64,000 nucleotides of DNA from Eubacteriales bacterium (GCA_045654725.1 JAZONX010000039.1:6747-70746), one strand, 5' to 3'; counted from the stretch's first letter, positions 16,086-49,200 are shown. Notes: a model not told the origin generated them from the letters alone. Numbers and translations are program-made.

Positions 16086-17051
16086 ATGTGTACTGCAATA
16101 AGTCTTGACGGAGTCGTGGGACGAAGCTTTGATTACGAATGTTCATTTGGGGAGCAAATAATCATTACACCAAGAGAAAGGGTCGTATACGGTCAGGCGA
16201 AAAACCGCTATGCAATGCTTGGTGTTGGCGTGGTAAGAGAAGGGGTATCGCTGTATTTTGACGGAGTGAACGAGTGGGGGCTATGGGGTGCTGCGCTCAA
16301 TTTTCCGGGATACGCGGTATACCATGATCCAAGCGAAAATAAAGCGGCTATTTCATCGGGTGATCTTGTAGGATTTCTCCTGGGATTTTGTAAGGATATT
16401 CATGAAATCAGCGGTGCGCTCAAAAACATCGTCATCAGCTGGCAGGGAGAACAAACGCCTCTTCATTGGATGTTTGCCGATAAACGCGGCTCGATAACCG
16501 TTGAGTCGGTGAAGGAAGGACTGAAAATTTACGAGAATCCTTTTGGCGTTCTCACCAATTCTCCGCCATTTCCAAATCAGCTGACGAGCCTTGCACCATA
16601 TCTGCATCTGAACCCAAAAAATCCCAATGACAACCTGACGGATGGTCTGATTTTACCGCATTCGCGAGGAATGGGCGGAGTGGGTTTGCCGGGTGATTTT
16701 TCCTCACAGTCGAGATTTATCAGGGCGGTTTTCCTAAAGAAAAATACTCTAGCGGAAAGGCGTGAGATGGATGATATGACTAAGCTCAGCGACAGCGAGG
16801 GTCAGATAAGTAGATTTTTCCATATTGCATCCTCTCTTTCTATTCCTCTGGGAAGTGTTGTTACGGATGAAAATCTTCCCGTATCTACGCGCTATATTTC
16901 TTGCGCCGATACCGAGGAGTTGACCTATTATTTCAGCACCTACGGATCGAGGCAGATTCGCTCGGTGAGTCTTTCTGACAAGCTTCGTGACGGAAAGGAG
17001 ATAAAGGTGTATCCTCTTTATCACCCTGAAAAGGTTGAGAGATTAAACTAA
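16086..17051 (+). CDS. Choloylglycine hydrolase family (bile-salt hydrolase / linear amide C-N hydrolase, Ntn)
   Basis: Begins MCTAISL, so Cys2 is the expected Ntn nucleophile. Length is ~320 aa. GGAGGG SD upstream. Confidence 0.75.
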   Translation: MCTAISLDGVVGRSFDYECSFGEQIIITPRERVVYGQAKNRYAMLGVGVVREGVSLYFDGVNEWGLWGAALNFPGYAVYHDPSENKAAISSGDLVGFLLGFCKDIHEISGALKNIVISWQGEQTPLHWMFADKRGSITVESVKEGLKIYENPFGVLTNSPPFPNQLTSLAPYLHLNPKNPNDNLTDGLILPHSRGMGGVGLPGDFSSQSRFIRAVFLKKNTLAERREMDDMTKLSDSEGQISRFFHIASSLSIPLGSVVTDENLPVSTRYISCADTEELTYYFSTYGSRQIRSVSLSDKLRDGKEIKVYPLYHPEKVERLN

Positions 17052-18884: not shown

Positions 18885-20240
18885 ATGAAAATTGTAATTA
18901 TAGGTCTTGGAACGATTGGAAAGACCATACTTAAAAATCTATCTGCGGAGGATCACAGAATTACTATCATTGACGAGGATAAGGAAAAGATAGAAACTCT
19001 CATTGAAAAGTATGACGTGTCCGGCGTCGTTGGCAACGGTGCGTGCATCGACATTCAAAAGGAAGCCGGCGTCAAGGGAGCAGATTTGGCAATCGTACTT
19101 ACCGATAGCGACGAGCTTAACATTTTTGCCTGCCTTGTTGCCAAGAAAATGGGCGTTAAAAACACTATCACTCGTGTTAGAAACCCTGATTACAGAAAGC
19201 AGATCATGGCAATGAAGGACGAGCTCGGAATTTCTATGATAGTAAATCCCGAGAGAGATACTGCCACAGAAATTTTCAATCTCATCAACCTTCCTTCGCT
19301 GGCTCAGATAGATCACTTCGCAAACGGCAGAGTTCTGCTTGTTGAAATAGTTGCAGAGAAGGGATGCTCCTTGATTGGAGAAACCCTTACCTCAATTGGT
19401 AGAAAGCTTGCAACCAGAGTTCTTATTTGCGCAGTACAAAGAGGACAAGATGTTATTATCCCTACCGGTAACTTTAAAATTGAGGAGGGTGACAGAATAC
19501 ACCTGACCTCGGACGCCAAGTCTTTGCGCGATTTCCTCTCGGAGGTTAATCTTGTAACCTCTCCGCTGAAGAATATTATGATTGTCGGTGGAAGCAAGAT
19601 TGCCTATTATCTCTCCGACGAACTTTCCAGAAAGAAGTATAAAATCAAGCTGATTGAGGCTGACAAAGAAAATGCCGAGGTGCTTGCAGACAGCCTTCCT
19701 CGCGTTACCGTAATTCACGGAAACGGAACTCATCACGATCTCCTCCTTGAGGAGGGAATCGAGGCGGTTGACGCCTTTGTTGCGCTGACCAATACCGATG
19801 AGGAAAATATGGTTCTATCGATGTTCGCGCATAAGATGAAGGTTAAAAAGCCCATCACACAGATTAAGGGCGATGATTTGTACGGTATGCTGGACGAGCT
19901 TGGAATTAACAACATTGTTTCTCCGAAGAGCATCGTGTCTGACAGAATTACCAGCTATATTCGCGCGCTTGCCAATAAGCGTGGAAGTAACGTGCTCACC
20001 CTTTACCGCTTGGTAAATAATCAGGTTGAGGCTTTGGAGTTTCTTGCCAAAAAGCAGGGTAGGATATACGAAAAGCCTCTCAGAGAGCTTAAAATCAAGC
20101 ACAACTGCCTGATTGCCTGCATTATTCGTCAGAATGAGGTTATTATCCCCGACGGTAATTCCTGCATCAGTCTTGGTGATAACGTTATCGTAGTAACCAC
20201 CCATAAGAACTTTGATGACCTGACGGACATCTTCGATTAA
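18885..20240 (+). CDS. trkA: Trk potassium uptake protein, NAD-binding subunit TrkA
   Basis: Two tandem RCK units, each starting with a Rossmann motif (IIGLGTIGK; IVGGSKIAYY). Confidence 0.9.
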   Translation: MKIVIIGLGTIGKTILKNLSAEDHRITIIDEDKEKIETLIEKYDVSGVVGNGACIDIQKEAGVKGADLAIVLTDSDELNIFACLVAKKMGVKNTITRVRNPDYRKQIMAMKDELGISMIVNPERDTATEIFNLINLPSLAQIDHFANGRVLLVEIVAEKGCSLIGETLTSIGRKLATRVLICAVQRGQDVIIPTGNFKIEEGDRIHLTSDAKSLRDFLSEVNLVTSPLKNIMIVGGSKIAYYLSDELSRKKYKIKLIEADKENAEVLADSLPRVTVIHGNGTHHDLLLEEGIEAVDAFVALTNTDEENMVLSMFAHKMKVKKPITQIKGDDLYGMLDELGINNIVSPKSIVSDRITSYIRALANKRGSNVLTLYRLVNNQVEALEFLAKKQGRIYEKPLRELKIKHNCLIACIIRQNEVIIPDGNSCISLGDNVIVVTTHKNFDDLTDIFD

Positions 20241-20253
20241 GGTACGGCTTTAT

Positions 20254-21837
20254 ATGAACTATAAGAAATTAGGTAAAATACTCGGCAAGATAATGATACT
20301 TGAAGCCATTCTCATGTTGGCTCCTCTTGCTGTAGCTATAATTTATAACGAAGGCCTAAGGAACATTCTTGCCTTCGCTATTCCGATTGTCCTCATTACT
20401 ACTTTGGGATTGCTTTTGCAAATTCCAAAGCCCAAGAGGAACACGATGTATCAGAAGGAGGGCTTTGCCTTAACCGCCCTGGTGTGGATTTTGATGACGT
20501 TCCTCGGCGCAATTCCCTTCGTGATTAACAAGGATATTCCTAACTATGTTGATGCCTGCTTCGAGATGATGTCGGGCTTTACCACAACGGGATCAAGTGT
20601 TATCACCGACATTACGGCGGTATCTCACTCCACTCTGTTCTGGAGAAGCTTTTCTCACTGGATAGGCGGTATGGGTATTCTGGTATTTGTGCTGATATTC
20701 ATTCCCGAAAGCGACGACGGTTCGTCGATGCATCTTCTTCGTGCAGAGAGCCCCGGCCCCCAGGTTGGTAAGCTTGTTTCAAAAATGAAGGTGACTACGA
20801 GAATACTGTATCTCATCTATCTCGGTATGACCGCGCTTGAGATCGTTATTCTTTGCCTCGGTCCGCTGACCGATTATAACGCAATGTGCGAGGCGCTCGG
20901 CGAAACGGCTGCCACCGCATATCATAATGACAAGGTATTCCACGCGTTTCTTACATCCTTTGGCTGTGCAGGTACCGGTGGATTCGGATTTATTCCCGGA
21001 AGCATAGAGTATTTCACCCCTGTTGCACAGTACGTAATGTCTATATTCCTCATTCTCTTTGGCATTAACTTTAGTCTGTATTATCTCCTTCTTATCGGAA
21101 GGGCAAAGCAGGTCTTCAAGAGCGAAGAGTTTTTGAGCTATTTCCTGATCATTATTGGAGCGGTAGCCTTCGTGTTTATCAGCCTTGTTGGCAAATTTGA
21201 AGCCTTCCCACAGACCTATACAACAGAGGAGGCGTTTAGACACTCGCTGTTCCAGGTAGTGTCGCTAATAACTACCGCAGGCTTTTCAACCACTGATTTC
21301 AATCTTTGGCCTATGTTGGGCAGAATGTCGTTGATAGTGGTAATGTTCATCGGTGCTATGGCGGGCTCGACCGCGGGTGGCATTAAGCTATCGCGAATTA
21401 TTATCGCCATCAAGGGCGCATATATCAACGTCAGAAAGCTTATAAATCCTCGTTATGTTCCCAAGGCGAAATTCGAGGGAAAATCACTGGAGGAAAAAAC
21501 GATAAGCGATGTGTTTGCATTTATTACGCTCTATTTCTTCCTGTTTATTGCGGCTCTGTTCCTTCTGTCATTCGACCCTGTCAACGGCAGTGTTGCGGTG
21601 GTATCATCCGATGCGGGAACGTATGCAGTAGAACATGGTTTCTTCAGCAATTTCTCTGCTGTGCTGACCTGTATTTCCAACGTTGGACCTGCCTTTGAGG
21701 CGGTTGGTCCTTATGCGAGCTTTGCGGAATACAGCTATTTCTCCAAGATCATTTTAACTTTGACAATGATGCTTGGCAGACTTGAGATTTTGCCGGTTTT
21801 AATTCTCTTTAACCCAAAAACCTGGAAGAAAATCTAA
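20254..21837 (+). CDS. trkH: Trk potassium uptake protein, membrane subunit TrkH
   Basis: Polytopic protein with selectivity-filter-like MSGFTTTGSS, CAGTGGFG and TTAGFST repeats. It lies immediately downstream of trkA. Confidence 0.9.
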   Translation: MNYKKLGKILGKIMILEAILMLAPLAVAIIYNEGLRNILAFAIPIVLITTLGLLLQIPKPKRNTMYQKEGFALTALVWILMTFLGAIPFVINKDIPNYVDACFEMMSGFTTTGSSVITDITAVSHSTLFWRSFSHWIGGMGILVFVLIFIPESDDGSSMHLLRAESPGPQVGKLVSKMKVTTRILYLIYLGMTALEIVILCLGPLTDYNAMCEALGETAATAYHNDKVFHAFLTSFGCAGTGGFGFIPGSIEYFTPVAQYVMSIFLILFGINFSLYYLLLIGRAKQVFKSEEFLSYFLIIIGAVAFVFISLVGKFEAFPQTYTTEEAFRHSLFQVVSLITTAGFSTTDFNLWPMLGRMSLIVVMFIGAMAGSTAGGIKLSRIIIAIKGAYINVRKLINPRYVPKAKFEGKSLEEKTISDVFAFITLYFFLFIAALFLLSFDPVNGSVAVVSSDAGTYAVEHGFFSNFSAVLTCISNVGPAFEAVGPYASFAEYSYFSKIILTLTMMLGRLEILPVLILFNPKTWKKI

Positions 21838-24851: not shown

Positions 24852-24925
24852 TGGCAGCGGAACTAGGATTCGAACCCAGACATACAGAGTCAGAGTCTGC
24901 TGTGCTACCTTTACACAATTCCGCT
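24852..24925 (-). tRNA. tRNA-Gln (anticodon CUG)
   Basis: Hand-folded cloverleaf on the minus strand. Acceptor AGCGGAA/TTCCGCT, anticodon stem GCAGA/TCTGT with loop CTCTGAC (anticodon CTG), T-arm CTGGG-TTCGAAT-CCTAG, discriminator G, and encoded CCA. Confidence 0.85.
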
Positions 24926-25372: not shown

Positions 25373-25993
25373 CTATCTTTGAATGAAATTTGTTCGGAAC
25401 TGATTTTCTCTTTTTGGCAATCCCAATGATTCCTTTCCTATTGCAATGCTCTTTGCAAGAAATGCGGCATTTCTGGCGAGGTTTCTCATGCACTGCATTC
25501 CCTCTTCATCAAGGGTTGCATCGTCGGCATTTGCTCCATGTACCTGATTCCAATAACTCGATGTTGCTATGGGCATACCCGAAATGCTAAAATACTTGTT
25601 TAGCACGTCAAACGTAGCCGTGCACCCTCCTCGTCTGGCACATACTACAGAAGCGCCGATTTTTCCTCGCTTTTCAAATTTTGTGCTGTAGAAGAGTCTG
25701 TCGAGGAAAGATATTAGTGTTCCCGCAGGTGCTGCGTAATAAACCGGTGAGCCGACGATCAATCCGTCAGCCTCCTCAAATTTTTTTGCGACCTCGTTTA
25801 CTTTGTCATCAAATACACATTTTCCCAGCTCGGAGCAGGTGTAACAACCTATACATCCTCTTATTGGCAGATGTCCTATGTGTATAATTTCGCTTTCGAT
25901 TCCTTCCTCGCGGAGGGTCCTTGCAACCTCGGTAAGTGCCGCATTGGTTGTTCCTGCCCCGTGAGGGCTTCCGTTGATCAACAAAAATTTCAT
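25373..25993 (-). CDS. Flavodoxin-like fold NAD(P)H-dependent FMN reductase / iron-sulfur flavoprotein family
   Basis: MKFLLINGSPHGAGTTN N-terminus and a Cys cluster CIGCYTCSELGKC. Start set at ATG 25993 after GGAGG. Confidence 0.7.
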   Translation of the reverse strand: MKFLLINGSPHGAGTTNAALTEVARTLREEGIESEIIHIGHLPIRGCIGCYTCSELGKCVFDDKVNEVAKKFEEADGLIVGSPVYYAAPAGTLISFLDRLFYSTKFEKRGKIGASVVCARRGGCTATFDVLNKYFSISGMPIATSSYWNQVHGANADDATLDEEGMQCMRNLARNAAFLAKSIAIGKESLGLPKRENQFRTNFIQR

Positions 25994-26180
25994 ATATTTT
26001 CCTCCGATTTGTTTCATAATATGCTTTTCGCATTGTCTTTGATACGCCTAACGACCTCATTATAGCACATTAGACGCTTGATTTCAATTGCATTTTGCTC
26101 TGTTTGCACTATTTTGGGAGTCCGGTTTTGGTGTTTTTCACAAAATTTACAAAAAATTAATAAAAAAAATTAACTTCTAC

Positions 26181-26209
26181 TTGAAAAACAAAATATCGTG
26201 TGTTATAAT
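26181..26209 (+). promoter_or_regulatory. Strong sigma-A-type promoter of the coaW-CBS-giant gene operon
   Basis: TTGAAA, 17 nt, then TATAAT with TGT (extended -10). A ~170-nt leader follows before ATG 26384. Confidence 0.55.
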
Positions 26210-26383
26210 AGTCACGTGAATCGTATATATACGCGCATTATTTGTATATAACATTGAGCGCGATTTATTGCAAGATTTCCAAGACGTGCAGTGCTAGGCC
26301 GCATGTAAGCAGCGGCAACTTGCTTCCCAAACATGGTCTTTTAGCCTTGAAAAGGGTTGATGGCGGAAAGGCGGTAGTTGACT

Positions 26384-27241
26384 ATGAGTGTTGTAATCGG
26401 AATTGACATAGGTGGTAGTACCACAAAAATTGTAGGTTTTTCGTGCACTGATAAGGGGTGGGAGCTTATCGAGCCGCAGATAATCAAAGCAAACGATCCG
26501 GTTACTGCAACATACGGAGCTTTTGGTAAGTTCACCGACGAAAATGGCCTGTTGATCAATGACATATCGAAGGTTATGATGACCGGTGTGGGAGCATCTC
26601 ACGTTAAAAAGAGTCTTTATGGGCTTGATTGTCATAGGGTTGCCGAGTTTGACAGTATCGGACGCGGTGGTACCTATCTTTCGAGTCTATCTGATGCCTT
26701 GGTAGTTAGTATGGGCACAGGAACCGCGATTGTCCACGCCAGAGCCGACGGAACAATGAAATATCTCGGCGGCACAGGTGTCGGCGGCGGAACGTTGATG
26801 GGACTTTCTAAGCTTCTGCTAAATGCAGAGTCAGTTGGATATATCGAGAAATATGCCGAATCCGGAAGCCTTGACAACGTCGATCTTCGTATTAAGGACA
26901 TGATTGCGTCTGACACAATCAGCCGACTCGAAGCCAATCTTACCGCATCCAATTTCGGTAAGCTCGATGATGCGGCGAGCAAGGCGGACGTTGCTCTTGG
27001 CATAATGAATCTCGTCTTTGAGACGGTGGGAATGATCTCTGTTTTTGCCGCAAAATCTGTTGGCGCAAAGAACGTAATACTCACAGGTAACGTCACAAGG
27101 CTTGAGCACTGCAAGCGTAAATTCGAGGAATTTAATAACCTTGAGGTGGCGCGCGGACTTAACTTCGTAATTCCCGAGCGTGCACGATTTGCTACTGCGA
27201 TCGGCGCCGCAATTATTGGAATCCAGCGAGGTGACGAATGA
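26384..27241 (+). CDS. coaW: Type II pantothenate kinase-like ASKHA ATPase
   Basis: GIDIGGSTTKIVGF phosphate-1 motif and GGTGVGGGTLMGLSKLLL, as in type II PanK. An assignment to another ASKHA family cannot be excluded. Confidence 0.6.
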   Translation: MSVVIGIDIGGSTTKIVGFSCTDKGWELIEPQIIKANDPVTATYGAFGKFTDENGLLINDISKVMMTGVGASHVKKSLYGLDCHRVAEFDSIGRGGTYLSSLSDALVVSMGTGTAIVHARADGTMKYLGGTGVGGGTLMGLSKLLLNAESVGYIEKYAESGSLDNVDLRIKDMIASDTISRLEANLTASNFGKLDDAASKADVALGIMNLVFETVGMISVFAAKSVGAKNVILTGNVTRLEHCKRKFEEFNNLEVARGLNFVIPERARFATAIGAAIIGIQRGDE

Positions 27242-27660
27242 ATATAATGCGCTTTGTCGTGCCCAAAAGCTTGGTTGAATACGTAACCGTGGATAGCACG
27301 ATACGTCAGGCTTTTGAGAAAATGCGTTTCCATAGATACGTTGCAATTCCCGTTATTGACGGAGAAGGTCGCTACGTTGGAACGCTTCGTAATGATGACA
27401 TTTTCGAATACTTCCTGCAGGTGGGCAGCTTCGACACCCACAACGCAGAGAGGGATAACGTTGTTGATATAATTGATAAAAAACGCTCTACACCTTTGTA
27501 TCACGATGCATCGATGGATGAGCTTATCGAGCGTGTCTGCGAGCATAATTTTGTTCCCGTTGTGGACGACAGAGGATGCTTTGTTGGAATAATTTTGCGA
27601 AAAGACATACTCAATTTTCTATTCAAAAAATATAAAAATGACATAAAGGGGGGGAATTGA
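27238..27660 (+). CDS. CBS-domain pair protein
   Basis: ATGA overlap with the coaW stop. Two CBS-like units (HRYVAIPVIDGEGRYVGTL; HNFVPVVDDRGCFVGIIL). Confidence 0.8.
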   Translation: MNIMRFVVPKSLVEYVTVDSTIRQAFEKMRFHRYVAIPVIDGEGRYVGTLRNDDIFEYFLQVGSFDTHNAERDNVVDIIDKKRSTPLYHDASMDELIERVCEHNFVPVVDDRGCFVGIILRKDILNFLFKKYKNDIKGGN

Positions 27661-30600
27661 TGGCAGACAAAGAAAAAAACATGCCGATACATGATCCCGA
27701 CAATCATGAAAATGAAATACTGAACCATCAGCCGTCTTCAACGGAAGAACTTCCCGAAGCGGATGCAGGTGCGTCGGTTGTAAACAACCCCGAAGAATCG
27801 GAGGTTACATCCAACGAACCTAAGTTGCCCGTTCAGGAAGCAGAGGTTGTAAACGAGCCTGCTGAGGAGCAGATCGAGCCCACCGAAGAAGTAGTTGGTT
27901 CCGAGGAGGTTGAGTCACCCGCGGAGGAAACTCCCGAGGTTGAATCTTCCGAAGAGGCAGCTGCTACGGAGGAGGTATCCGAGCCCGAGGCGATTGAGGA
28001 GGCGGAGCCTGTTTCGGAGGAAGAAGTTCCGGAAGCAGAGCCTGCTTCAGAGGAAGAAATCCCCGAAGAAGAGACTACCGAAGAGCCGCTTGTCGAGAGC
28101 GACGATGAGGTTGCTGAAGAACCGCTTGCCGAGAGCAATGAGGAAGCTCCTATCGATGGGGATGAACAACCCGAGGGCGAGTTCACCGAGAGCGATTGGA
28201 ACGAGGAAGACGAGCTCGAAGATGACACCGATTCAGAGGATGAAGACGACTCGTTTGACGAGAATCTTACCATTGAAATTGACGCTGACGGAATCGTAAC
28301 CACCAATGGTGTTGCCGAGGATGATGACTCCGAGAACTTCGTTAATGACGAAGAAGAGAAGGAGATCGATCCCGAGGATCTCGTGATTTACGATGAGGTT
28401 ATAAAGGCTATCAAATCAGAGGGTGAGCGCCTGGTTGCAAAGGAAGAAAGTCTTAAACTCTATGCGAAGCATAGCAAGGACGCAATTAAGAACTTTGAGG
28501 CGGCTCTTAAGGTTGGTCAGCATCTGCTTGAAAGCAACCGTGACGAGAAGGAAACTCCTTCTATTTTGGCCGGTATCATCAAGATCTGCGCGCAGATCCT
28601 TGAAATCAAGTGCAACAACCTCGAGAACTACGTAAGAGTTAAGGCTTATGAGTACATCAAGCCTGCCCGCAAGGAGCTCAGCTATGAGATCGAGAGATAC
28701 AACGATTACCTGATTACATATTCTTCTTTAACCGGTGAGCAGCTGACGAGATTGTCCGCGCTCCTTCCCGAGAAGATTGCTTCAGGAAAATCTATTGCTG
28801 TGATCCCCGTTCTCTCTTACAGAGAGAGTTACGTTCAGGTCTCCGAGGATGACGAGCTTACAAGAGAGGCTGCAGCAACCCTCACCTTCATAGACCCCGT
28901 GCTCAATGCCGATGCGCTTATGGGAGAGGTTGATCCTCCTCGTACAGTGGGTGGAACTCGCCGTTACATGAGAAAGGCGAAAAAGGCCACCAAGGCACTC
29001 GGTAATGAATGTTCAAGAATAAGCAAGCTTCTCTCCCAGTCCAAGTCAGCCCGTAAGAGATTCGAAGACGAGCTCAGGGCACTTGAGGCGAGAACACCTC
29101 TTGCACAGCGTGCAACAGACGAGTACAAGAACAAGGTGTTCAAGATCGGAGTTAAGTATGGAAAGCAGCTCTCCGGCATTAAGACGCTGAAGACCAGAAA
29201 CGCCTTTGTGAGAAACAGAGTGCGCCTGATGATCAACCGTCTTGTTATCGAGAGAGAAAAGCTTGTCATCGCATACGATTGTTTGCGTGAGGCTTGTCGT
29301 GCAGGAAACAATGGTCAGAAGAGAATAGCGAGAGATTACCTGACAAAGGCGATCTTCTCCTACAATAAGTGCGCCGAGCTTTGCAGTAAGGCGGCGGGAG
29401 CGAACTTTGAGGTAATATCTCCCTTTGTTGTAGATCAGATCTACGCAGGAAAGGAAGCTTCCTTCCCAAGAATTGCTTATAAGCGCGAGCTTGTTGAGAC
29501 GGTTGGTAACACCTCCCGTTCGATTAGCATGGTGCTTCGCAATGATGTTCTTCCCGACGAACAGGCTTACGCTGAAACCTCGCAGAGAATTGTCGATAAG
29601 CATGGTAACACGGTTAACACCGCCGCACTTTCGGATGAATCGGCGATGGAGGACAGAGCATCTGCGATTGCGAAGGTAATGATTGATGCCCTTAAGGACT
29701 CGGCGGATACAGTTCTAAATGTTGATGATCTCGAGCGCTTCTCAGTTAAGGTTAACAGAGCACTCAAGTACTTCAAGAGAGCTCGCCGCAGAACCGAGAA
29801 GGCGATGGCGCGTGCCTTTGATGAAAACGGCGTTATCACCGCCTTGGTTGAAAACCTTCGCGTGATTGCCAACATAATCGAGGTAAGGCGAATCAGCATT
29901 GCTGCCGCGACCAGAATTAAGCGCAACGACATTGCGAGAAGCTACAGCAGAGCACTTTACAAAAACATTGAGCTTTATAACGGAAGAGCTATTGACTATA
30001 TGTCGATAGTTGGCGAGCAGTTCTCCCGTATCAGCATTACTCCCGTAAGAGATCTTGCTAACGGAGCAGATAAGCTTAAAGTTCCTGTTATAACATATAA
30101 AGATAATTACATAGAAGTATTTCCTAAAGATCCTCTTAAGGATTCTGTTTACGAAAAGCCCAGACTGTGGCGCTCGGGAGTTTACACGCCTCTCCTTATG
30201 AAGCACTACAGACTTACGGAAAACCGCGCTATCGAAACAACGGTTGTTAACTCGCCCTTCGTATTTGACGTTATGACCGATGATATGCCGGCTGTTTCCT
30301 GGTGGCACCCCATAGGAATTTGGCAGCACCTGATGGTATGGGCGCAGCCGATAGTTGCTTGGTGGCACAGAGTACTGACTAACGTCGAAATCTGGTTCGT
30401 AGATGAGTCGCTTGTATTCTCGAAGAGCGGACTTAAGGGCAGGGAAAGACGAAATCAAAGAAGAAAACGCAGATACGAAAGCAAGATTCGACGTTTCAAC
30501 GCCGAGCATACTGCAGCGATACTTAGACTTGAAACGGTTGTTCACGAGACCGACCGTCACACCCTTGAGTATCAGAAGAAGATCTGCAAGATTAACGAAA

Positions 30601-33266
30601 AATACAGCCGTAAGATCTATCGTTTGAAGCTTCGCTGGATGCGTGAGTGCCCCGGTAGAAACGAGGCAAGATTGATGCTTGAGCGTCTCGTTCTTGAAAG
30701 AGAGAGACTTGCCGGTATCAACAAGGTTATCCTCAAGTACAGAAACTACGGCAGAATCACCTTTACTCGCAATATTCTTGTTAAATATAAGAAGAAATTC
30801 ATTGAAGCAATAACCGCGCACAACAACACCGCCGAGAAGCTTTCTGAACTTATTGGCGTTAAGTTGTCGCAGGTATCGACCTCGGTTGCAGAAGAGATCA
30901 TAAGATATGGTAATATGATCAAGTTCCCCGAGATCGTATGCTGCAGAGAGGTTATTGAAACCATCGATGGCAAGAATAGAACCGTTGGCGACAGATGGCA
31001 CGGATACGGTCTTTACACCGGAACCTCCGACTCCGCTTCGTCTAATGCGAATGCACCTGTTATGTCTGTTGGCGCTATGGGTTACGCGACTGATATGGGC
31101 GTTCCTTTCCTTAAGAGCGACACTAACGGCATGACAATGATCGGTATGACTCCCGGCGGAGTTCCTCTCATTGGATTTAACTCCACAGGCGAGACTTCCA
31201 TACCCTTCACCGGTACACCTATGATGCTCTCCGGCTCGGATATCTCCGTGGTACTTGACGCCGGCAGAGAAGGTCAGGATACGATGATCCTTGGCGCAGC
31301 CGATGCGACCGATCCTTACTCCGGCCTCAATCAGCGTGGTGTTGATGCAAGATATACAGACGACCTTGAAGAAGATGCAAAGGATCTCCACTCGGGTTGC
31401 GAGGTCGAGACTCCCCTTGATCTTCAGTCGAAGATGATAGAAGAAAGATTTACCAGAGCACTCCGCGCAAGAGCAATGACGTCGATTGACAACGTCAGAA
31501 ACTGGTGGAAGCTCGTTGGTAGCGAAATCAACGTTTGGATTATGAGAAAACTTCTCATAAGACCTCGCGGATTCCTCCAGATCCTTCTTCCTCCGAGAGA
31601 TTTCTATATTGAAAACGTAAACACAAAGGTTAGCGTTCAGGATGTAATCTCTCTTGAGAGAATTTCGACGGTTGGCGGTATCATCGACATAGAGTGCAAG
31701 AGACTCTATTCGGCTACTAAGACCGGAGTTAGACGTTCGCAGAGAAAGTTCAGCGCATGGCTCCATGAGGACATTGATCTTTACAACCAGCTTGTAAAGA
31801 CCTACAACAAGAATCATCCTCGCCACATGCACATCGAGCTTCTTTCCTTCAACATCCCGGATACGATCAGATTCAGACGAGAGGATCTTCCTCCCGCGCC
31901 TCCCGTTTTCAGCATGCGCAACAGAGTTAAGCTTCAAGAGGACGCTACGCCAATCTTGACTAAGGATCTGTTGGAAAGCCTTGTTGAATATGCCAAGAAG
32001 GCAACGTTTAGACACAAAGGTCTGATAGGAATAATTTGGGCTAAGCTTGTTACAGTTCCTCTTCTTAATCTCGAGATGCGTCTCGGATTACGCGGCAAAG
32101 CTCTTAAGAGAGTTAAGCGTATGATTGGTAAGAGATCTAACAGAGCTTATGCTTACCGTCAGGAAAACGAAGCAAGACATTACCGAATCAGATACGAAAA
32201 GGCTCGTTCAATGAAGCGCTATAACAGACGTACTCTGCGCGCTATCGGACTTGCGAACGATCCTATCAAGTATCAGGAAAAGGTACACAAGGTTCTTCGC
32301 AGACACCTGACTCAGATCTTCCGAATCGACTACAATATGCGTATACGCCAGCTCATCTACAGAGCGATGAGAGTTCAAAAAGAACTCTACTGGATTGTTA
32401 CCGCGGCACTTGCGGCGGTTACGGTTATCGTATCGTTAACACCCGTAGATATGAGAGCGTTGCAGACGCTTGTATTTGTCGGTGTCGTTTGGGCAGCATT
32501 GCCTATCATCCTCGCATTGCTCAGACTTGTTTACTCGATTGTTCTGTTGGTAGTAAGTATCGTGCTTCTGCTTACACGAAACATCTGGCTTATCAAGTAT
32601 GGTGCAAGAGACGTTGAGCGAAACCGCTATGGCGCGATTCTCGACTGCTTCGTAACAGAGCAGTATAGATTGCTCGTGGCTTGTGAAAGAGTTCATCAGA
32701 AGCCCAGAAGCCATAAGGCAAGAAAGATTCTTATTGCAGCGGTTAATGATTTCAACAAGCGTTCGACCGTTTATTCCGAAATTCTCAGAATTCCGATTAA
32801 GCAGATTGAAATTACAGGGCTCCTCGAGAAGCTTACAACCGAAGGCTCTCACCGTCTTGTTGAACTTCAGAACTTCGTATACGTAAGAGAGCTTGTCGAG
32901 CGCGTTGACAGACGTCAGAGAGGTAAGACCCTCACAGACAGAGAGTACGCCACACTTTCAGGTGAGATTAACCAGGTTATCAATCTCATCAACCTCAGAA
33001 GCAGCGAGAGTGATCCCGCCGTTCAGTTCCTTAGAACAAAGATGGAGGATCTTGCTAACCGCATCCGCAACAGAGATATTAAGCTCACTCAGAATGAGAG
33101 ATTTGAGCTTAAGAGAGATCTCATTGAAGGCGCGATGAATCTTCAGCTTGAGGCAGGCGAATTCGAAATATTTGCAAAGAACGTCATAACGATCGTAGAT
33201 CACATCGGCGGTAAGGATAGCCGCAGAATTATTGGTGTTCTTGCATCGGATGATATGATCATCTAA
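27660..33266 (+). CDS. Giant (1,868 aa) uncharacterised repeat-containing membrane protein
   Basis: The ATG overlaps the CBS-gene TGA (TGATG) and is preceded by a G-rich SD. The ORF is uninterrupted. It has an acidic E/P-rich N-terminal ~220 aa, six copies of a ~95-aa module, a Trp-rich segment and three hydrophobic helices near residue ~1580-1650. No catalytic motif recognised. Confidence 0.8.
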   Translation: MADKEKNMPIHDPDNHENEILNHQPSSTEELPEADAGASVVNNPEESEVTSNEPKLPVQEAEVVNEPAEEQIEPTEEVVGSEEVESPAEETPEVESSEEAAATEEVSEPEAIEEAEPVSEEEVPEAEPASEEEIPEEETTEEPLVESDDEVAEEPLAESNEEAPIDGDEQPEGEFTESDWNEEDELEDDTDSEDEDDSFDENLTIEIDADGIVTTNGVAEDDDSENFVNDEEEKEIDPEDLVIYDEVIKAIKSEGERLVAKEESLKLYAKHSKDAIKNFEAALKVGQHLLESNRDEKETPSILAGIIKICAQILEIKCNNLENYVRVKAYEYIKPARKELSYEIERYNDYLITYSSLTGEQLTRLSALLPEKIASGKSIAVIPVLSYRESYVQVSEDDELTREAAATLTFIDPVLNADALMGEVDPPRTVGGTRRYMRKAKKATKALGNECSRISKLLSQSKSARKRFEDELRALEARTPLAQRATDEYKNKVFKIGVKYGKQLSGIKTLKTRNAFVRNRVRLMINRLVIEREKLVIAYDCLREACRAGNNGQKRIARDYLTKAIFSYNKCAELCSKAAGANFEVISPFVVDQIYAGKEASFPRIAYKRELVETVGNTSRSISMVLRNDVLPDEQAYAETSQRIVDKHGNTVNTAALSDESAMEDRASAIAKVMIDALKDSADTVLNVDDLERFSVKVNRALKYFKRARRRTEKAMARAFDENGVITALVENLRVIANIIEVRRISIAAATRIKRNDIARSYSRALYKNIELYNGRAIDYMSIVGEQFSRISITPVRDLANGADKLKVPVITYKDNYIEVFPKDPLKDSVYEKPRLWRSGVYTPLLMKHYRLTENRAIETTVVNSPFVFDVMTDDMPAVSWWHPIGIWQHLMVWAQPIVAWWHRVLTNVEIWFVDESLVFSKSGLKGRERRNQRRKRRYESKIRRFNAEHTAAILRLETVVHETDRHTLEYQKKICKINEKYSRKIYRLKLRWMRECPGRNEARLMLERLVLERERLAGINKVILKYRNYGRITFTRNILVKYKKKFIEAITAHNNTAEKLSELIGVKLSQVSTSVAEEIIRYGNMIKFPEIVCCREVIETIDGKNRTVGDRWHGYGLYTGTSDSASSNANAPVMSVGAMGYATDMGVPFLKSDTNGMTMIGMTPGGVPLIGFNSTGETSIPFTGTPMMLSGSDISVVLDAGREGQDTMILGAADATDPYSGLNQRGVDARYTDDLEEDAKDLHSGCEVETPLDLQSKMIEERFTRALRARAMTSIDNVRNWWKLVGSEINVWIMRKLLIRPRGFLQILLPPRDFYIENVNTKVSVQDVISLERISTVGGIIDIECKRLYSATKTGVRRSQRKFSAWLHEDIDLYNQLVKTYNKNHPRHMHIELLSFNIPDTIRFRREDLPPAPPVFSMRNRVKLQEDATPILTKDLLESLVEYAKKATFRHKGLIGIIWAKLVTVPLLNLEMRLGLRGKALKRVKRMIGKRSNRAYAYRQENEARHYRIRYEKARSMKRYNRRTLRAIGLANDPIKYQEKVHKVLRRHLTQIFRIDYNMRIRQLIYRAMRVQKELYWIVTAALAAVTVIVSLTPVDMRALQTLVFVGVVWAALPIILALLRLVYSIVLLVVSIVLLLTRNIWLIKYGARDVERNRYGAILDCFVTEQYRLLVACERVHQKPRSHKARKILIAAVNDFNKRSTVYSEILRIPIKQIEITGLLEKLTTEGSHRLVELQNFVYVRELVERVDRRQRGKTLTDREYATLSGEINQVINLINLRSSESDPAVQFLRTKMEDLANRIRNRDIKLTQNERFELKRDLIEGAMNLQLEAGEFEIFAKNVITIVDHIGGKDSRRIIGVLASDDMII

Positions 33267-33316
33267 ACTAATTGGTTTTAAGTAAATTAAATAAAAAACA
33301 AAAAAATAAATTTGAA

Positions 33317-33333
33317 GGGGGCAGGAGGCCCCC
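33317..33333 (+). promoter_or_regulatory. GC hairpin immediately 5' of the SD of the 522-aa gene
   Basis: GGGGGC-AGGAG-GCCCCC, directly followed by SD GGAAGGAG and then ATG 33349. Confidence 0.4.
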
Positions 33334-33348
33334 GGAAGGAGAATTACA

Positions 33349-34917
33349 ATGAGTAAAGTACAGCAGACCAGAGTAGAACTTCTTGTTGAAAGCATCGCTG
33401 TGGAGAAGCAGATTCTTATCGAAATCTGTGACGATCTTGCAGCTCACCGCGACACCGGTAACAAGAAGGCAGCTAAGGAGGCAAAGAAGAACCTCAACGC
33501 ACAGATCAAGAGATACAACAGCCTTGTATCCGATTACAACAAGGTATCTGGCGAGAAGGTTGCAGGCGTTTCCTATGATCTTCCCGAGGAGATCCTTGCA
33601 GGAAGCAACAACTACGGCATCGCTACAGTTGGCACTCCCGTAGCATCCACCGCAAACGCATACAATGCGAACATCAGAATTCTTGACCAGAAAGAGCTCA
33701 AGAAGTACCTCAACAAGAGCGACAAGGCACTTGACAACGTTAAGACCAGACTTGAAGCTACTTGCAAGCAGAAGGACGAGGCAACCGGTTACAACAAGGT
33801 TCTCCTCATCATCAACTGCCTCACATATCAGAGATATGTAATCGAGAGACTCGCTGAGAATCTCCACGTTTGCAACAAGCTCTCTGACAAGAGAGTTAAG
33901 TCCATCAAGAAGGCTCTTGCAGAGGCTATCAAGGGCTACAACAAGTTCGTTGACGAGTACGAGGCTCTTACCAGAAGCCGTCTTACCCGTGCATCCGAGT
34001 CTATTCCCGAGGATATTCTCGCAGGTAAGCCCTATTCTCCCATTCCCGCAATCTCTTACACCGCTAACGATGGCACCGCTAGAAACAGCGACGCTGACGT
34101 AGCAGCAGTTGCAGCAGTTGCAGTAGCAGACCTTGAGGGCGCAAGAGCTAAGAAGAAGCACGCTAAGAAGAACAAGGAAGTTGTTAGAAAGTCCGCACTT
34201 GAGGAGAAGGTTGTAGAGCAGGCTAACAAGGATATCGCAGTTATCGCAAAGCACTACGACTTCAGAATTAGCATGATCGAGAGCGAGAAGGATATGACCG
34301 CTTACAGATTCGGTTATAACACCTTCGACACCAAGAAGCTCAAGAAGGCTACTAACGAGAAGATCAAGAAGGTTCAGAAGGCTAACAAGGAAGCTCTCAA
34401 GTATGAGGAGAAGGATAACGCACGTTACTACGCAGTTATCACCAACGATCCTGCAACTATGAAGGCTAAGCGTCGTGCTAATAGAGTTAAGATCGCATCC
34501 CTTCGTACCCAGATGATGACCCTTCTTAACAAGAGAGATGAGCTTAACAGCAAGCTTCTCTCCATCTACAACGGCTCTGAGGTTACTCTTGACGGCGTAA
34601 GCATCAACCAGAAGTGGCGTCAGGTTAAGTCCGATGCAGCTGAGAAGTATGTAAACGGCAACAAGAAGCTCGCTAAGAAGATCGCTCGTCTTCCTGCATC
34701 CAGCGGTGAAAAGCAGAGACTCTTCGGCATTATGAACAACAGCGTAGATGCATCCTCTACTCTTGCACTTACCAAGTATCGCCTTAAGACCAAGGAATAC
34801 AGAAATGGTGAAGAGAAGAAGGCTCTTCGTAAGGACGTTAAGCACTTTGAGAAGGTTCTTAAGCAGAACAGCAAGGACATCAAGTGGGTTATCAAGAAGA
34901 TTAAGAAGCGCGCTTGA
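33349..34917 (+). CDS. Lys/Ala/Glu-rich 522-aa paralogue of the giant protein's repeat module
   Basis: Strong SD upstream. Contains two clear copies of the same module (…IKRYNSLVSDYNKVSGEKVAGVSYDLPEEILAG…; …IKGYNKFVDEYEALTRSRLTRASESIPEDILAG…). Ends at TGA 34915-34917. Confidence 0.8.
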   Translation: MSKVQQTRVELLVESIAVEKQILIEICDDLAAHRDTGNKKAAKEAKKNLNAQIKRYNSLVSDYNKVSGEKVAGVSYDLPEEILAGSNNYGIATVGTPVASTANAYNANIRILDQKELKKYLNKSDKALDNVKTRLEATCKQKDEATGYNKVLLIINCLTYQRYVIERLAENLHVCNKLSDKRVKSIKKALAEAIKGYNKFVDEYEALTRSRLTRASESIPEDILAGKPYSPIPAISYTANDGTARNSDADVAAVAAVAVADLEGARAKKKHAKKNKEVVRKSALEEKVVEQANKDIAVIAKHYDFRISMIESEKDMTAYRFGYNTFDTKKLKKATNEKIKKVQKANKEALKYEEKDNARYYAVITNDPATMKAKRRANRVKIASLRTQMMTLLNKRDELNSKLLSIYNGSEVTLDGVSINQKWRQVKSDAAEKYVNGNKKLAKKIARLPASSGEKQRLFGIMNNSVDASSTLALTKYRLKTKEYRNGEEKKALRKDVKHFEKVLKQNSKDIKWVIKKIKKRA

Positions 34918-35067
34918 AGGTTACGTAACACGTTCTGGTGGGTGGCACTTTATCTGCTACTGCTCCTAGGCGGAGCCGGACTCGCTTTGCTGTATTTTGC
35001 AGCAAGTAGCGCAGAGCTTACAGCTCTAATCAATGAATTTATTAATAATTACGGAGGATTAATATAA
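34918..35067 (+). other. 49-codon open extension in frame with the 522-aa ORF beyond its TGA; encodes a TM helix
   Basis: Translation: RLRNTFWWVALYLLLLLGGAGLALLYFAASSAELTALINEFINNYGGLI-stop. Its TAA (35065-35067) overlaps the ATG of the next gene (TAATG). No convincing independent SD/start. Confidence 0.5.
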
Positions 35068-35276
35068 TGGCTAAGAAGAGAAAGTCCGCAGGCATTGCAC
35101 AGACTGAGGCAATCAAGACTCGTGCAGGCATGGCTGAAAAGCTTGAAAAGGAAAGACTTGAACTCAAGAAAGAAATGGAAGCAATCATGAAGAAGTATGC
35201 TAAGGCAACCGGTCAGAGAAAGCTCGGTCAGCGTAAGCATAAGGTTGGTAAGGCTCCCAACGACTACAGAGCATAA
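35067..35276 (+). CDS. Small (69 aa) highly basic helical protein
   Basis: GGAGG SD 8 nt upstream. Sequence: MAKKRKSAGIAQTEAIKTR...KLGQRKHKVGKAPNDYRA. No recognisable family. Confidence 0.6.
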   Translation: MAKKRKSAGIAQTEAIKTRAGMAEKLEKERLELKKEMEAIMKKYAKATGQRKLGQRKHKVGKAPNDYRA

Positions 35277-35309
35277 TTACTCTGAGTCAAAAAATATTTG
35301 AGAAAGCTA

Positions 35310-35338
35310 TTGCATTTTCTCAAATGTTGTGATATAAT
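35310..35338 (+). promoter_or_regulatory. Promoter of the rimP-nusA-infB operon
   Basis: TTGCAT, 17 nt, then TATAAT with TGA (extended -10). Confidence 0.55.
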
Positions 35339-35361: not shown

Positions 35362-35411
35362 GGGGCTGTCGCGAAAGTGACAGCCCCTTCACAATAGTTT
35401 TTTTATTGTGA
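35362..35411 (+). promoter_or_regulatory. Two tandem leader hairpins (candidate attenuator) upstream of rimP
   Basis: GGGGCTGTC-GCGAAAGT-GACAGCCCC (35362-35387), then TCACAATA-GTTTTTT-TATTGTGA (35389-35411), between the promoter and the rimP SD. Confidence 0.45.
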
Positions 35412-46279: not shown

Positions 46280-49200
46280 ATGTTAAAAATAGTCAAAAGC
46301 GGATTTTCATCCTCGGCAAGAGAGGCGTTCTATGATAGAATTGCGACTCTTGTGAAAGAAGAAAAACGCGCTTTTCTTATAGTTCCCGAGCAGCAGACCG
46401 TAATGGCAGAAAGCCTGATGTCGAGAATTTTGCCTCCTTCCTCTGCTCTTTGCTTCGAGGTGACTAACTTCACAAGACTTGCGAACACAACCTTCCGTTC
46501 TCTCGGCGGTCTGTCTGGCGAGTATTGTGATTCGGCAAAAAAATCCCTTATAATGTGGCGCACACTCACCGAGCTCTCCCCCACGCTTTCAATGACCTCG
46601 GGAAGGGGAGAAATAAATGCCGGCCTTGTTGAGTCGGCTCTTGCCGCGGTATCCGAGATGCAGAATAAGGGGATTTCTCCCGCCGGGCTTCTCGAGGTCT
46701 GCGAAATGGATGAAATCAAGACTGATCGCCGACTTTTATCGCGAATTTCCGACCTGGCGAGCATCTACTCACTTTACAAGAGTCTTCTTTCCGAGCGCTA
46801 TCAGGATACGGGCGATGATGCTGACGCTATGATAAAGAGACTCGAGCAGAATCCAGGTTTCCTTGCAGATAGCGAGATATTTATAGAGGGCTTCACGTCA
46901 TTCACCGAGCCCCAGTATAGGCTTATCGCTCTCCTTGGCGAAAGATGTCCCGTTAGCGTTGCGCTTACGCTGCCTAAGGGGAGGGAAGAGGCATTTGAGT
47001 TTTCTGAAATAGCCGATACCGAACGTAGACTCATCAGCCACACAAGGCGCAGAGGCGTTGGCATTAAGCTTTCGAGAGAAGAAGGACGCTTACACAAAAT
47101 TAAAGAGGAGCTCGACCTGATTTCTGCTCGTTTGTGGTCAACAATAAGAACAAATGACAAGATAAGTTTACAAAACAACGATAGTTTGCGCATTTTTGAG
47201 GCTAAAACCCCGTATGAAGAATGCTCGTTTATTTGCGATGACATTAAGCGTAGAGTGATGAGTGGCGCATCCTACTCCGACTTTGCCATTATAGCTCGAT
47301 GCTGCGAGAGATATGACGGAATTCTCGATTCCGCCTTGAATGCTGCAAAAATTCCTGCATTTACTTCATATCGCAAGGATATACAGGAATTTGAGGCCAT
47401 AAAGCTTATCTATACCGCTTACGCTGTGTGCCGCGGATTTAGACGTGAGGACGTTATTAGCTACGCGAAGTGTGCTCTTGCCGGTGTGAGCAGGGAAGAA
47501 TGCGACGAATTTGAGATGTACGTCAACAAATGGCAGATTAGTGGTAGACGTTTTATGGACGACGCTGTCTGGAATATGAATCCTGCCGGTTACACTTCAA
47601 AAAAGAGTGAAAATAACGCAGAAAAGCTGATGCGTATACACGATATTCGCACAAGAATTACCGAACCACTGCTGGAATTATACCGCGATGTGCGAGCGGC
47701 GGCAACTGTTAGGGCGCAGGCGGAATGCCTTTTGAACTTCCTTTTGAGAATTGATCTTGAGAGATCTCTTGAGGCTAGGGCGGATCATCTTGCAAGCCTT
47801 GGCGAATCGGCTCTCGCCGAAGAAAATCGCACTCTCTGGAGGCTGATTTGCAACGCGCTTGACATTATTGTTACCGTGCTTGACGATATGCCTGCAGATT
47901 TTGAGGTCTTCCTTTCCCAGCTTAAGGTTGTTCTTTCGGCTACCGATATTGGCAGAATTCCTGCCTTTGTAGATCAGGTGACCGTGGGCGGCGCAGAGAT
48001 GCTTCGTCTTTACAACAAGCCTCACATCTATCTAATTGGAGTTAACGCAGGGGTATTTCCTGCGACTGTTAGTGATCGCTCATATTTCTCCGAGAGAGAT
48101 CGACGATTGCTCTCATCGGCGGGACTTGCCCTCTCGCCCGAGCTTGAAATTAAGGGTGCGCGAGAGCTATATATCTTCAGCAGAGCTTTTTCCTATGCCA
48201 CCGAGAGCGTTACGCTCTCCTATTCCTCTGCCGATACGAGATTTAAGGCGATAGATCCTGCTGAGGTTGTGCAAAAGATACTTGATCTCACAGGCGGAGC
48301 GGTTAAGGTGAGAAAAATTTCCGATCTCGACGCAAAAGACAGACTTTTTACGGCTAAAAATGCCCTTAACGAGCTTGGACAGACCGAGAAAAATTACGCC
48401 GACATCAAGGATGCTCTTGTTAGGGCGGGTTACGATGAAAGGGTGAAAATCTGCGAGGGAGATATATCGAATAGCAAAATCTCGCTGGGTCTTGAGGTTG
48501 TTGACGGACTGAAAAACAAAACGCTCACGCTATCACAGAGTAAAATCGACTCCTACGTTAGCTGTCCATTCGGTTATTTCTGCCGATACGCAATAAATCT
48601 CTCGGCTGATGAGCGCGCGGAGTTTGACGCCGGAAGCATCGGTTCTTTCATTCATGGAATACTTGAAAACTTCTTCCGCGCTCTCTCCCGGGAGGGCAGA
48701 AGCTCCGGCGAGCTTTCGAAGGATGAGAGAATTGCTCTTACAAAGGCTGCTGCGGAGAAATATATATCCGACCTTGGCGAGGACATGCTCTCGCAGTCGG
48801 TTAGAACAAAAATCAAAATAGACAGACTCTGTCGCGCGGCAATTCCCGTTGTTGACGGACTTTGCGACGAGTTTAGCAAATCGGCATTTGAGCCGAGATA
48901 TTTCGAGCTTTTCATCGGTCGTGATGCAGAGGCTCCCGATCCCATCGAGATGAAGACCGACAATGGCATCATAAAAATCTACGGAGTCATAGACCGAGTT
49001 GATGCATATAAGCGCGGCGAGGACGTTTACCTGCGAGTTATAGACTACAAGACGGGTCAGAAGGCGTTTTCTCCCGACGATCTCGCGGAAGGCTCTAATT
49101 TGCAGATGTTCCTCTATTTGAAGGCTCTCGTTGAAAGCCAAAAGGATGAGTACAAAAAGAGTCTTGGCATTGGTGAGAGCGGAAAAATCATTCCTGCAGG

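Follow-up and report, generated by a model that had tools for sequence, protein, structure and literature searches.

A new protein superfamily beside rimP-nusA-infB includes a strong candidate for programmed readthrough of a UGA codon in bacteria

We analyzed 64,000 nucleotides (nt) of DNA from a Eubacteriales bacterium (GCA_045654725.1 JAZONX010000039.1:6747-70746; here called the window, with positions counted from its first letter). Upstream of rimP, the window encodes a protein of 1,868 residues (the giant), one of 522 residues (p522) and a basic protein of 69 residues (p69). The giant and p522 belong to a new protein superfamily and, judged by comparison with their relatives, are halves of one ancestral tail-anchored protein. 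The p522 gene ends in a TGA that is followed in frame by a conserved membrane anchor, which makes this chromosomal gene a strong bacterial candidate for programmed readthrough of UGA. That such readthrough sets the ratio of soluble to tail-anchored forms of a structural subunit, within an unrecognized superfamily of modular tail-anchored proteins (zero to eight ‘YN-TGE’ modules) with a fixed place at a housekeeping locus in a major clade of gut Clostridia, we regard as an evenly balanced proposition.

RESULTS AND DISCUSSION

A conserved TGA precedes an in-frame membrane anchor

An earlier note on this DNA described a three-gene module in nearly 8 kb of uninterrupted coding sequence. An open reading frame (ORF) map found all three ORFs intact at the positions given there, and the module is conserved. 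It consists, however, of two halves of one ancestral protein and a small partner, and the coding sequence is interrupted: a spacer of 82 nt with a conserved hairpin splits the giant from p522, and a TGA lies between p522 and its extension. That extension, 49 codons with a transmembrane (TM) helix, is a fourth coding element. The coding elements are as follows.

27660-33266, plus strand: giant ORF, 1,868 residues counted from the ATG; equivalent to the N-terminal part of the ancestral tail-anchored protein
33349-34917, plus strand: p522 ORF; equivalent to the C-terminal part of the ancestral tail-anchored protein
34915-34917, plus strand: in-frame TGA followed by A (AGG), conserved; candidate readthrough site
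34918-35067, plus strand: 49-codon in-frame extension and its TAA (35065-35067), which overlaps the ATG of p69
34930-34998, plus strand: TM helix of the extension, TFWWVALYLLLLLGGAGLALLYF, at the same position as the fused tail anchor of distant members
35067-35276, plus strand: p69 ORF, a basic protein of 69 residues

In all 16 loci that carry an extension (the window and 15 others), a TGA with A as the next base (AGG or AAG) occupies the same position, and 34-60 in-frame codons encoding a TM helix come after it. Across these loci, whose p522 identity to the window falls as low as 53% and which include two pairs of near-duplicates, the end of p522 reads ...KKR(A/V/G/K) TGA A(G/A)G. Conservation of the amino acid sequence (R-x-D-x-T-F-W-W) starts with the first codon past the TGA. 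In the nucleotide alignment, synonymous third-position changes occur throughout the extension (e.g. TTC/TTT, TAT/TAC and all Leu codons), and the mean pairwise variability at codon positions 1, 2 and 3 was 0.41, 0.24 and 0.52, respectively. The ratio of nonsynonymous to synonymous differences (pN/pS) was 0.56 for the extension, compared with 0.48 for the last 26 codons of p522; pS was 0.58, near saturation. Frame 0 is open in all extension loci, with one to five stops in frame +1 and none to four in frame +2. No start codon inside the extension was conserved across the aligned loci. The final codons of the extension also hold the Shine-Dalgarno sequence of p69.

Five loci have TAA in place of the TGA. 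They have no extension and no ORF, and the spacer has shrunk; one of them (L012) keeps a relic, TAA TAG ACA GAT AAT AAA... In a neighbor-joining tree of p522, four TAA loci were placed as one clade nested within the TGA clade, which argues for one origin of the TGA and one loss. By this tree, the TGA state is ancestral to the clade and the TAA clade has lost the extension.

UGA is the leaky stop in bacteria, with readthrough of ∼6% in wild-type Bacillus subtilis according to a passage of PMC7918605 that cites Karow et al. 1998, and tRNA-Trp variants can raise UGA readthrough (PMC13092985). The features by which programmed readthrough is recognized occur here together: a conserved in-frame ORF, a coding pattern of substitution, a leaky stop with a conserved context, and homologs in which the two parts are fused. 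A tail anchor is found in the family at large; p522 of the window has one only if the TGA is read through. Since the anchor sits behind a conserved in-frame UGA, it is probably made only by readthrough, and we infer from the sequence comparison that this is how the UGA is decoded. The most economical interpretation is that a small, fixed fraction of p522 would gain its tail anchor in this way.

Two other sources of UGA decoding were considered and rejected. A suppressor tRNA encoded in the window was one; the window's only tRNA is tRNA-Gln(CUG). The other was reassignment of UGA (genetic code tables 4/25); TGA ends 9 of the 42 genes in the window, among them coaW and the CBS gene, whose products have family-typical lengths.

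Distant relatives are single tail-anchored proteins

A profile of the p522 family was searched against 1.84 billion representative sequences. It matched 315 clusters at 50% identity with E ≤ 1e-3, and 113 with E ≤ 1e-30. Homologs of the giant formed 72 clusters, from metagenome-assembled genomes (MAGs) of Oscillospiraceae or ‘Eubacteriales’ of animal guts, and homologs of p522 formed 109. A metagenome scan with the p522 profile yielded only three loci, and a search with a profile of single-chain members yielded nine proteins. Most of the 315 clusters are proteins of 0.8-3.8 thousand residues (maximum 3,761) with the p522-like part at the C-terminal end. The number of copies per protein of the module described below ranges from none to eight. 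A TM helix lies within the last 75 residues of 122 of the 132 family representatives of at least 450 residues, and the family is therefore ancestrally tail-anchored.

The order CBS - giant - p522 - p69 - rimP - nusA is kept in 19 genome loci, and identity of the giant falls to 25-28% between loci whose NusA proteins are 91% identical. In more distant loci the same slot reads (mutS2-like) - coaW - CBS - X - protein of 68-75 residues - rimP - nusA - ylxR - L7Ae - infB, where X is a single protein of 867, 911, 977 or 3,761 residues, or a giant with a protein of 590 or 615 residues. The earlier note linked the module to coaW-CBS on one side and rimP on the other. Among the relatives, p69 and the rimP operon proved invariant, whereas the link to coaW and CBS is variable: coaW is missing in three loci (L008, L011 and L016) and the CBS gene in one (L025).

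The single chains provide the Rosetta-stone evidence for gene fission, namely orthologs at the same locus that contain both parts in the same order. Four proteins hold both (P0182, P0191, P0196 and P0198); two of them, P0191 and P0196, run from seven modules to the C-terminal domain, the giant part preceding the p522 part. Single chains occupy the same locus in L022, L025, L026, L027 and L028. A TM helix fused without an intervening stop was found in P0174, P0176-P0182, P0184, L018 and L022-L026. Three loci (L018, L023 and L024) combine a soluble giant, without any hydrophobic segment, with a 590- or 615-residue partner whose TM helix is fused. The clade of the window has a giant with an internal TM cluster and the p522 anchor behind a TGA, and in the state nested within that clade the anchor is gone. 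No giant has a TM cluster unless the anchor of p522 is interrupted or lost.

Most members are one tail-anchored protein, encoded in each case ahead of the small protein and of rimP-nusA-infB; giant and p522 are therefore products of gene fission. The simplest history compatible with these sequences would start from one tail-anchored protein, which underwent fission; the giant would then have gained a membrane hairpin and the anchor of its partner would have been demoted.

Architecture of the giant, p522 and p69

The segments of the giant are listed below; all are on the plus strand and residue numbers refer to the giant.

27660-28379, plus strand: acidic low-complexity head, residues 1-240, with 73 Glu, 25 Asp and no Arg (net charge -94)
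28494-28853, plus strand: module 1, residues 279-398, by module hidden Markov model (HMM)
29154-29519, plus strand: module 2, residues 499-620, by module HMM
29769-30128, plus strand: module 3, residues 704-823, by module HMM and AlphaFold2
30114-30227, plus strand: conserved segment of low model confidence, residues 819-856, predicted local distance difference test (pLDDT) < 50
30288-30404, plus strand: Trp-rich segment, residues 877-915, with 7 Trp; predicted inside a long helix
30600-30983, plus strand: module 4, residues 981-1108, by module HMM and AlphaFold2
30990-31370, plus strand: Gly/Met/Pro-rich acidic segment, residues 1111-1237, strongly conserved, pLDDT < 50
31575-31949, plus strand: module 5, residues 1306-1430, by module HMM and AlphaFold2
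32382-32597, plus strand: hydrophobic cluster, residues 1575-1646, a helix of ∼20 and a helix of ∼45 residues; putative membrane hairpin
32565-32921, plus strand: module 6, residues 1636-1754; its HMM envelope reaches into the end of the hydrophobic cluster

Much of this anatomy had been read correctly from the sequence beforehand: the acidic head, six copies of a novel module, the Trp-rich segment and the basic character of the partner proteins (net charge +41 for p522 and +13 for p69) were all recovered. The ‘three-helix TM cluster’ proposed there exists as a hydrophobic cluster, with two or three helices. The description of p522 as a paralog of the giant also agrees with BLASTP (E = 6e-9 and 1.5e-7).

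The module spans ∼120 residues and occurs six times in the giant and twice in p522. In module 1, three helices are followed by the motif YN...TGEQLTRLS...P..I..G and this in turn by a beta strand, P.LSY.E.YV. The invariant positions over 12 divergent orthologs of the giant are those of the module signature, ...YN...TGE.LTR.S..P..I..G.....P.L.Y.E.Y. An AlphaFold2 model of residues 669-1868, built from an alignment of 71 sequences, consists of helical repeats (pLDDT 75.7; predicted template modeling score 0.70), in which each modeled module has three long helices, one short helix and a beta strand of 10-12 residues. A TTG lies one codon upstream of the ATG of the giant; homologs begin MAD(K/N)EK. 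The head varies in length and sequence among species, and the remainder of the giant is basic. The Trp-rich helix is restricted to the clade whose giants also have the TM cluster, and a very basic stretch (residues 1441-1565, net +26) lies ahead of that cluster. Segments 819-856 and 1111-1237 rank among the best conserved parts of the giant and contain numerous invariant Gly, Pro and Met residues. Since they are strongly conserved yet modeled with low confidence, they are likely candidates for regions that bind a partner or fold on assembly.

In p522, modules at residues 3-97 and 123-247 and a disordered linker (235-282) precede a helical C-terminal domain of ∼240 residues with a DN.RYY motif; the AlphaFold2 model is all-helical and, like that of the giant, made of helical repeats (pLDDT 75.7). 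The small protein p69 can be aligned over all loci compared, and its C-terminal motif R..K.G.APND(Y/W) is invariant.

The novelty claimed for these proteins stands after profile and fold searches, which place the giant, p522 and p69 in no known family. None of the three matched Pfam-A, NCBIfam, PHROGs or PADLOC, and nine distant family members (900-3,761 residues) showed no credible Pfam domain. Profile searches against the PDB sequences returned no matches. With a fold match defined as a Foldseek E < 1e-3, the best values against PDB/BFVD were 0.98 for p522 and, for the giant, 0.61 (PDB) and 1.1 (BFVD); the top matches were generic helical bundles (chemoreceptor, catenin and spectrin) at E ∼1. 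A literature search for the family and the locus retrieved general papers on readthrough only.

A working model and its alternatives

We lean slightly towards a split tail-anchored scaffold in which UGA readthrough sets a soluble and a minor tail-anchored form of p522. The ancestor would have been an all-cytoplasmic tail-anchored scaffold with a variable number of ∼120-residue modules and the ∼240-residue helical C-terminal domain, encoded beside p69. In the clade of the window the gene was split; the giant would have gained the hairpin (1575-1646) and the Trp-rich helix, and the original C-terminal anchor of p522 would have ended up behind a leaky UGA. Most p522 would stop at the UGA and be soluble; a few ribosomes would pass UGA-A, most likely by means of tRNA-Trp, extending the protein by 49 residues that include one TM helix. 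The outcome would be a fixed, small share of p522 in the membrane. The hydrophobic hairpin would insert the giant into the membrane and leave its two large parts in the cytoplasm, since there is no signal peptide, homologous modules lie on either side of the hairpin and the flanks are basic. A membrane giant would thus carry soluble and anchored p522 together with p69, which would join through its conserved C-terminal motif, on the cytoplasmic face. The giant and p522 very probably still act together because they are halves of one chain; the interaction of all three proteins, the topology of the giant and the scaffold role are predictions of the same kind. We keep ‘membrane-anchored scaffold’, the guess made in the earlier note, as the best general description, with scaffold denoting architecture and any function being putative.

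Several observations weigh against this model or limit it. Every relative is an uncultured MAG or a metagenome contig. A pN/pS of 0.56 indicates moderate constraint, TM helices are tolerant of substitution, and related sequences inflate the statistic. The anchored isoform must be dispensable at least in the TAA clade, because the extension was lost there. A readthrough-stimulating RNA element was looked for after the UGA and not found. The evidence for interaction of the giant, p522 and p69 consists of gene fission and synteny, the hydrophobic cluster could form two or three spans, and the word scaffold refers to architecture only.

Three alternatives concern the TGA itself. The extension could encode a separate membrane protein of ∼35-45 residues, made by re-initiation after the UGA or from a non-canonical start. 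Some loci do offer a possible internal start (codon 9 is GTG in the window, ATG is codon 6 in L004 and codon 2 in L015, and L029 has GTG-ATG as codons 6-7), a purine-rich GAAGG after the stop might act as a weak Shine-Dalgarno sequence, and the product would remain a TM peptide under selection. Nevertheless, no start codon is conserved in place or identity, with only ATA or ATT available in many loci, and conservation already begins at the first codon past the TGA. Every extension, moreover, lies in the frame of p522 and follows TGA rather than TAA or TAG, two regularities that independent initiation would not demand; distant relatives carry the helix covalently joined to the rest of the polypeptide. 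We therefore consider a separate micro-protein rather unlikely. It is more doubtful still that the TGA is a plain stop, p522 wholly soluble and the downstream frame an untranslated relic of the anchor, even though all gene callers end p522 at the TGA and one clade lost the extension yet kept the module. Frame 0 has stayed open with a TM helix in 16 loci despite nearly saturated synonymous differences, while frames +1 and +2 hold up to five stops; the TAA loci, shrunken and without an ORF, show how such a region decays neutrally in this lineage, and the tree has the TGA arise at the base of the clade. Efficient decoding of the UGA, by selenocysteine insertion or a suppressor or variant tRNA, so that p522 is essentially always tail-anchored, is very improbable. 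UGA does serve as a codon for selenocysteine and, when reassigned, for Trp or Gly, and bacterial tRNA-Trp(CCA) variants that read it exist (PMC13092985). But RNAalifold over 11 loci found no conserved RNA structure after the UGA (-0.14 kcal/mol, four base pairs, no covariation), which argues against a selenocysteine insertion sequence, and a selenocysteine in the linker ahead of a TM helix would have no rationale. The nine window genes that TGA terminates also speak against efficient decoding, and in the fused homologs none of Trp, Cys and Gly is conserved at the corresponding site.

Two further alternatives concern the role of the module. As the only invariant neighbors over very divergent lineages are p69 and rimP-nusA-ylxR-L7Ae-infB, the complex might be a membrane tether for nucleic acid or ribosomes that is functionally linked to this operon, with basic helical modules as the sites of contact with RNA, DNA or ribosomes and the acidic head as an autoinhibitory or competitor tail. 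The segregation of charge, with a head of -94 against a basic remainder of the giant and the basic p522 and p69, would suit such a role. Against it, rimP has its own conserved promoter and leader, so that co-transcription is not needed, no nucleic-acid-binding domain was detected with Pfam or NCBIfam, basic surfaces bind acidic phospholipids equally well, and conserved adjacency may be historical. We consider a tether attractive but improbable as the role of the complex. Fast evolution, seen in giants 25-28% identical where NusA is 91% identical, and the great differences in size among lineages are what one would also expect of accessory cargo such as a phage, plasmid, defense or toxin element. 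Yet neither PHROGs nor PADLOC gave a match, tblastn with p522 against phage and plasmid collections found none, the chromosomal position is fixed in all genomes examined, the GC content resembles that of the flanks and mobility genes are absent from the borders; cargo is barely credible.

Comparison with known systems and significance

If the split scaffold with UGA readthrough is correct, the locus would represent dual localization by recoding in a bacterial chromosomal gene. To our knowledge, such dual localization has so far been seen in eukaryotic peroxisomal enzymes and, as a minor capsid subunit, in phage Q-beta. In this RNA phage, a leaky UGA at the end of the coat gene gives rise to the minor extended protein A1. 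The likeness lies in a UGA that ends an abundant structural subunit, a minor extended isoform that enters the same assembly, and a ratio set by the efficiency of termination. Q-beta differs in that the gene is that of a phage and the extension is soluble and needed for infection, whereas here a chromosomal gene of Clostridia, known from sequence, would add a membrane anchor.

UGA readthrough in fungi and animals produces peroxisomal isoforms of glycolytic, lactate dehydrogenase and malate dehydrogenase enzymes (PMC4207609). These also combine a short conserved UGA context with a minor isoform that carries a targeting signal, so that one gene serves two compartments. They are eukaryotic and use a peroxisomal targeting signal type 1 tripeptide after UGA-CU, in contrast to UGA-A(G/A)G and a whole TM helix here. 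In bacteria, Belinky et al. 2021 (PMC7918605) described conserved in-frame stops with flanks under purifying selection, and interpreted them as readthrough that lowers expression. An in-frame TGA kept over evolution between such flanks is common to those cases and ours. Those cases are statistical and cover short time scales; here we have one locus, with the stop at the boundary of soluble domain and anchor, the TGA kept down to 53% protein identity, and relatives in both fused and lost states.

As an architecture, the family resembles the golgins and the ribosome receptor p180, which are tail-anchored with long cytoplasmic helical or coiled-coil regions, and EzrA, a membrane-tethered helical scaffold of bacteria. 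They share one terminal TM helix, a large helical-repeat region in the cytoplasm and charged segments of low complexity. Neither sequence nor fold relates the family to any of them, EzrA is anchored N-terminally, and the module, with its YN/TGE motif and a beta strand at its end, is without parallel.

Conserved, functional stop-codon readthrough in chromosomal genes of bacteria has been argued from statistics, and concrete, mechanistically interpretable examples are few. Because relatives show the fused, UGA-interrupted and lost states, readthrough at this locus can be tested directly. The locus also shows clearly, as a natural series, how a gene was split, modules were duplicated and an anchor was moved. 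Annotation pipelines and gene callers would systematically overlook the anchored isoform of p522. The family itself comprises 315 clusters without a Pfam model, a structural relative or a name, with a fixed place beside rimP-nusA-infB. Its hosts are abundant uncultured Oscillospiraceae-like bacteria of ruminant and other animal guts, to whose cell biology it probably makes an important, unexplored contribution.

Organization of the locus and expression signals

The remaining genes and signals around the module are as follows.

26181-26209, plus strand: sigma-70-like promoter upstream of coaW, TTGAAA-17-TATAAT, TG-extended, matching the consensus at 11 of 12 positions
26378-27241, plus strand: coaW, type II pantothenate kinase (NF009842, 227 bits; Pfam Fumble); variably present in relatives
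27238-27660, plus strand: CBS-pair protein of 140 residues (PF00571), CbpB/DarB-like but under the cut-off; its stop overlaps the start of the giant
33317-33333, plus strand: GC hairpin GGGGGC-AGGAG-GCCCCC, after an A/U-rich tract and just 5′ of the p522 Shine-Dalgarno sequence (33334-33341)
35297-35324, plus strand: A/U-rich inverted repeat TTTGAGAAA / TTTCTCAAA, straddling the -35 element of the rimP promoter
35310-35338, plus strand: rimP promoter TTGCAT-17-TATAAT with a TGn extended -10 element, conserved in the clade; downstream boundary of the module
35362-35387, plus strand: rimP leader hairpin GGGGCTGTCGC-GAAA-GTGACAGCCCC, followed by a U-rich stretch; context outside the module

Matches to Pfam and NCBIfam bore out the names given earlier to the neighbors coaW, CBS, rimP and nusA; rimP and nusA follow p69, with infB further along. 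The stop/start overlaps are likewise present at ATGA 27238-27241 (coaW/CBS), TGATG 27658-27662 (CBS/giant) and TAATG 35065-35069 (extension/p69). The co-translation deduced from them is suggested for coaW, CBS and the giant only, as p522 has its own ribosome-binding site after the conserved hairpin, and the TAATG overlap is relevant solely to ribosomes that have passed the p522 TGA. The CBS-pair protein scored 74 bits against the cyclic di-AMP-binding CbpB/DarB, for which the cut-off is 125; coupled to the giant by the TGATG overlap, it may provide a regulatory input to the module. The base composition and GC content of the module are similar to those of its flanks. Assembly chimerism or a pseudogene was considered for the giant and ruled out by 70 full-length collinear homologs from independent assemblies.

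The promoter match upstream of coaW, in the earlier note a candidate for driving all of these genes, is by itself weak evidence, because the scan was not enriched over shuffled sequence (12 sites versus 11.8). A divergent twin of this promoter lies on the minus strand at 26087-26059, and a gene for flavin mononucleotide reductase (25373-26017, minus strand) is divergent from coaW in the window.

The hairpin in the p522 leader was present in all 15 loci compared, with compensatory changes in its stem (GGGGGC/GCCCCC, GGGAGCG/CGCTCCC, GGGGAC/GTCCCC, GGGGAT/ATCCCC and GGGGGT/ACCCCC). It is a candidate RNA processing or stabilizing element within the operon and probably lets the amount of p522 differ from that of the giant. 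A precedent is the stem-loop in the Firmicute operon cggR-gapA, which is cleaved by RNase Y. Both have an A/U-rich tract and a stable hairpin 5′ of a downstream ribosome-binding site, an arrangement that would permit unequal products; the hairpin described here is known from conservation and compensatory changes alone. By this analogy, it may stabilize the p522-p69 transcript and uncouple its level from that of the giant.

The separate rimP promoter proposed earlier falls under the threshold of our scan, yet it is conserved in at least 15 loci, which substantiates the proposal. The module and rimP-nusA-infB did not present as a single operon, with a promoter and a leader hairpin lying between p69 and rimP in all loci, though some transcription may still run on into rimP; as rimP has its own conserved promoter, the module need not be co-transcribed with it. 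The arms of the inverted repeat co-vary in other loci (TTAGGAAAA/TTTTCCTAA and TTTGAAAAA/TTTTTCAAA), and the repeat may act as an operator, form a cruciform in the DNA or weakly terminate the p69 transcript. The leader hairpin lies ∼23 nt downstream of the promoter. Distant loci keep it with other stems (e.g. GAGAGTGGC...GTCACTCTC) and tetraloops (L002-L028 compared), and it may be an attenuator, possibly for autoregulation by NusA, or a 5′ stabilizer. An Rfam scan of the whole window found tRNA-Gln only, and the hairpins described here match no known RNA family.

Some minor observations concern the surroundings of the module in relatives and in the window. A gene with a MutS_V domain (MutS2-like) precedes coaW in many relatives (L001, L018, L023, L024, L027 and L028 compared) and adjoins CBS directly, without coaW, in L008, L011 and L016; it is absent from the window (26018-26377 compared). 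In one locus (L027:127-6621), phage-like genes for a terminase large subunit and a capsid protein lie just upstream of mutS2-coaW-CBS-X; they are a neighboring prophage outside the module. In another (L005:9113-14893), which belongs to the clade without a p522 anchor, the ortholog of the giant is broken, with a longest open frame of 1,081 residues beyond which the tblastn match runs on, and may reflect a frameshift, a faulty assembly or a pseudogene. The window also encodes a choloylglycine (bile-salt) hydrolase (16086-17051), TrkA/TrkH potassium uptake (18885-21837), the tRNA-Gln(CUG) (24852-24925) and AddB (46280-49573), a set that fits the chromosome of gut-dwelling Clostridia.

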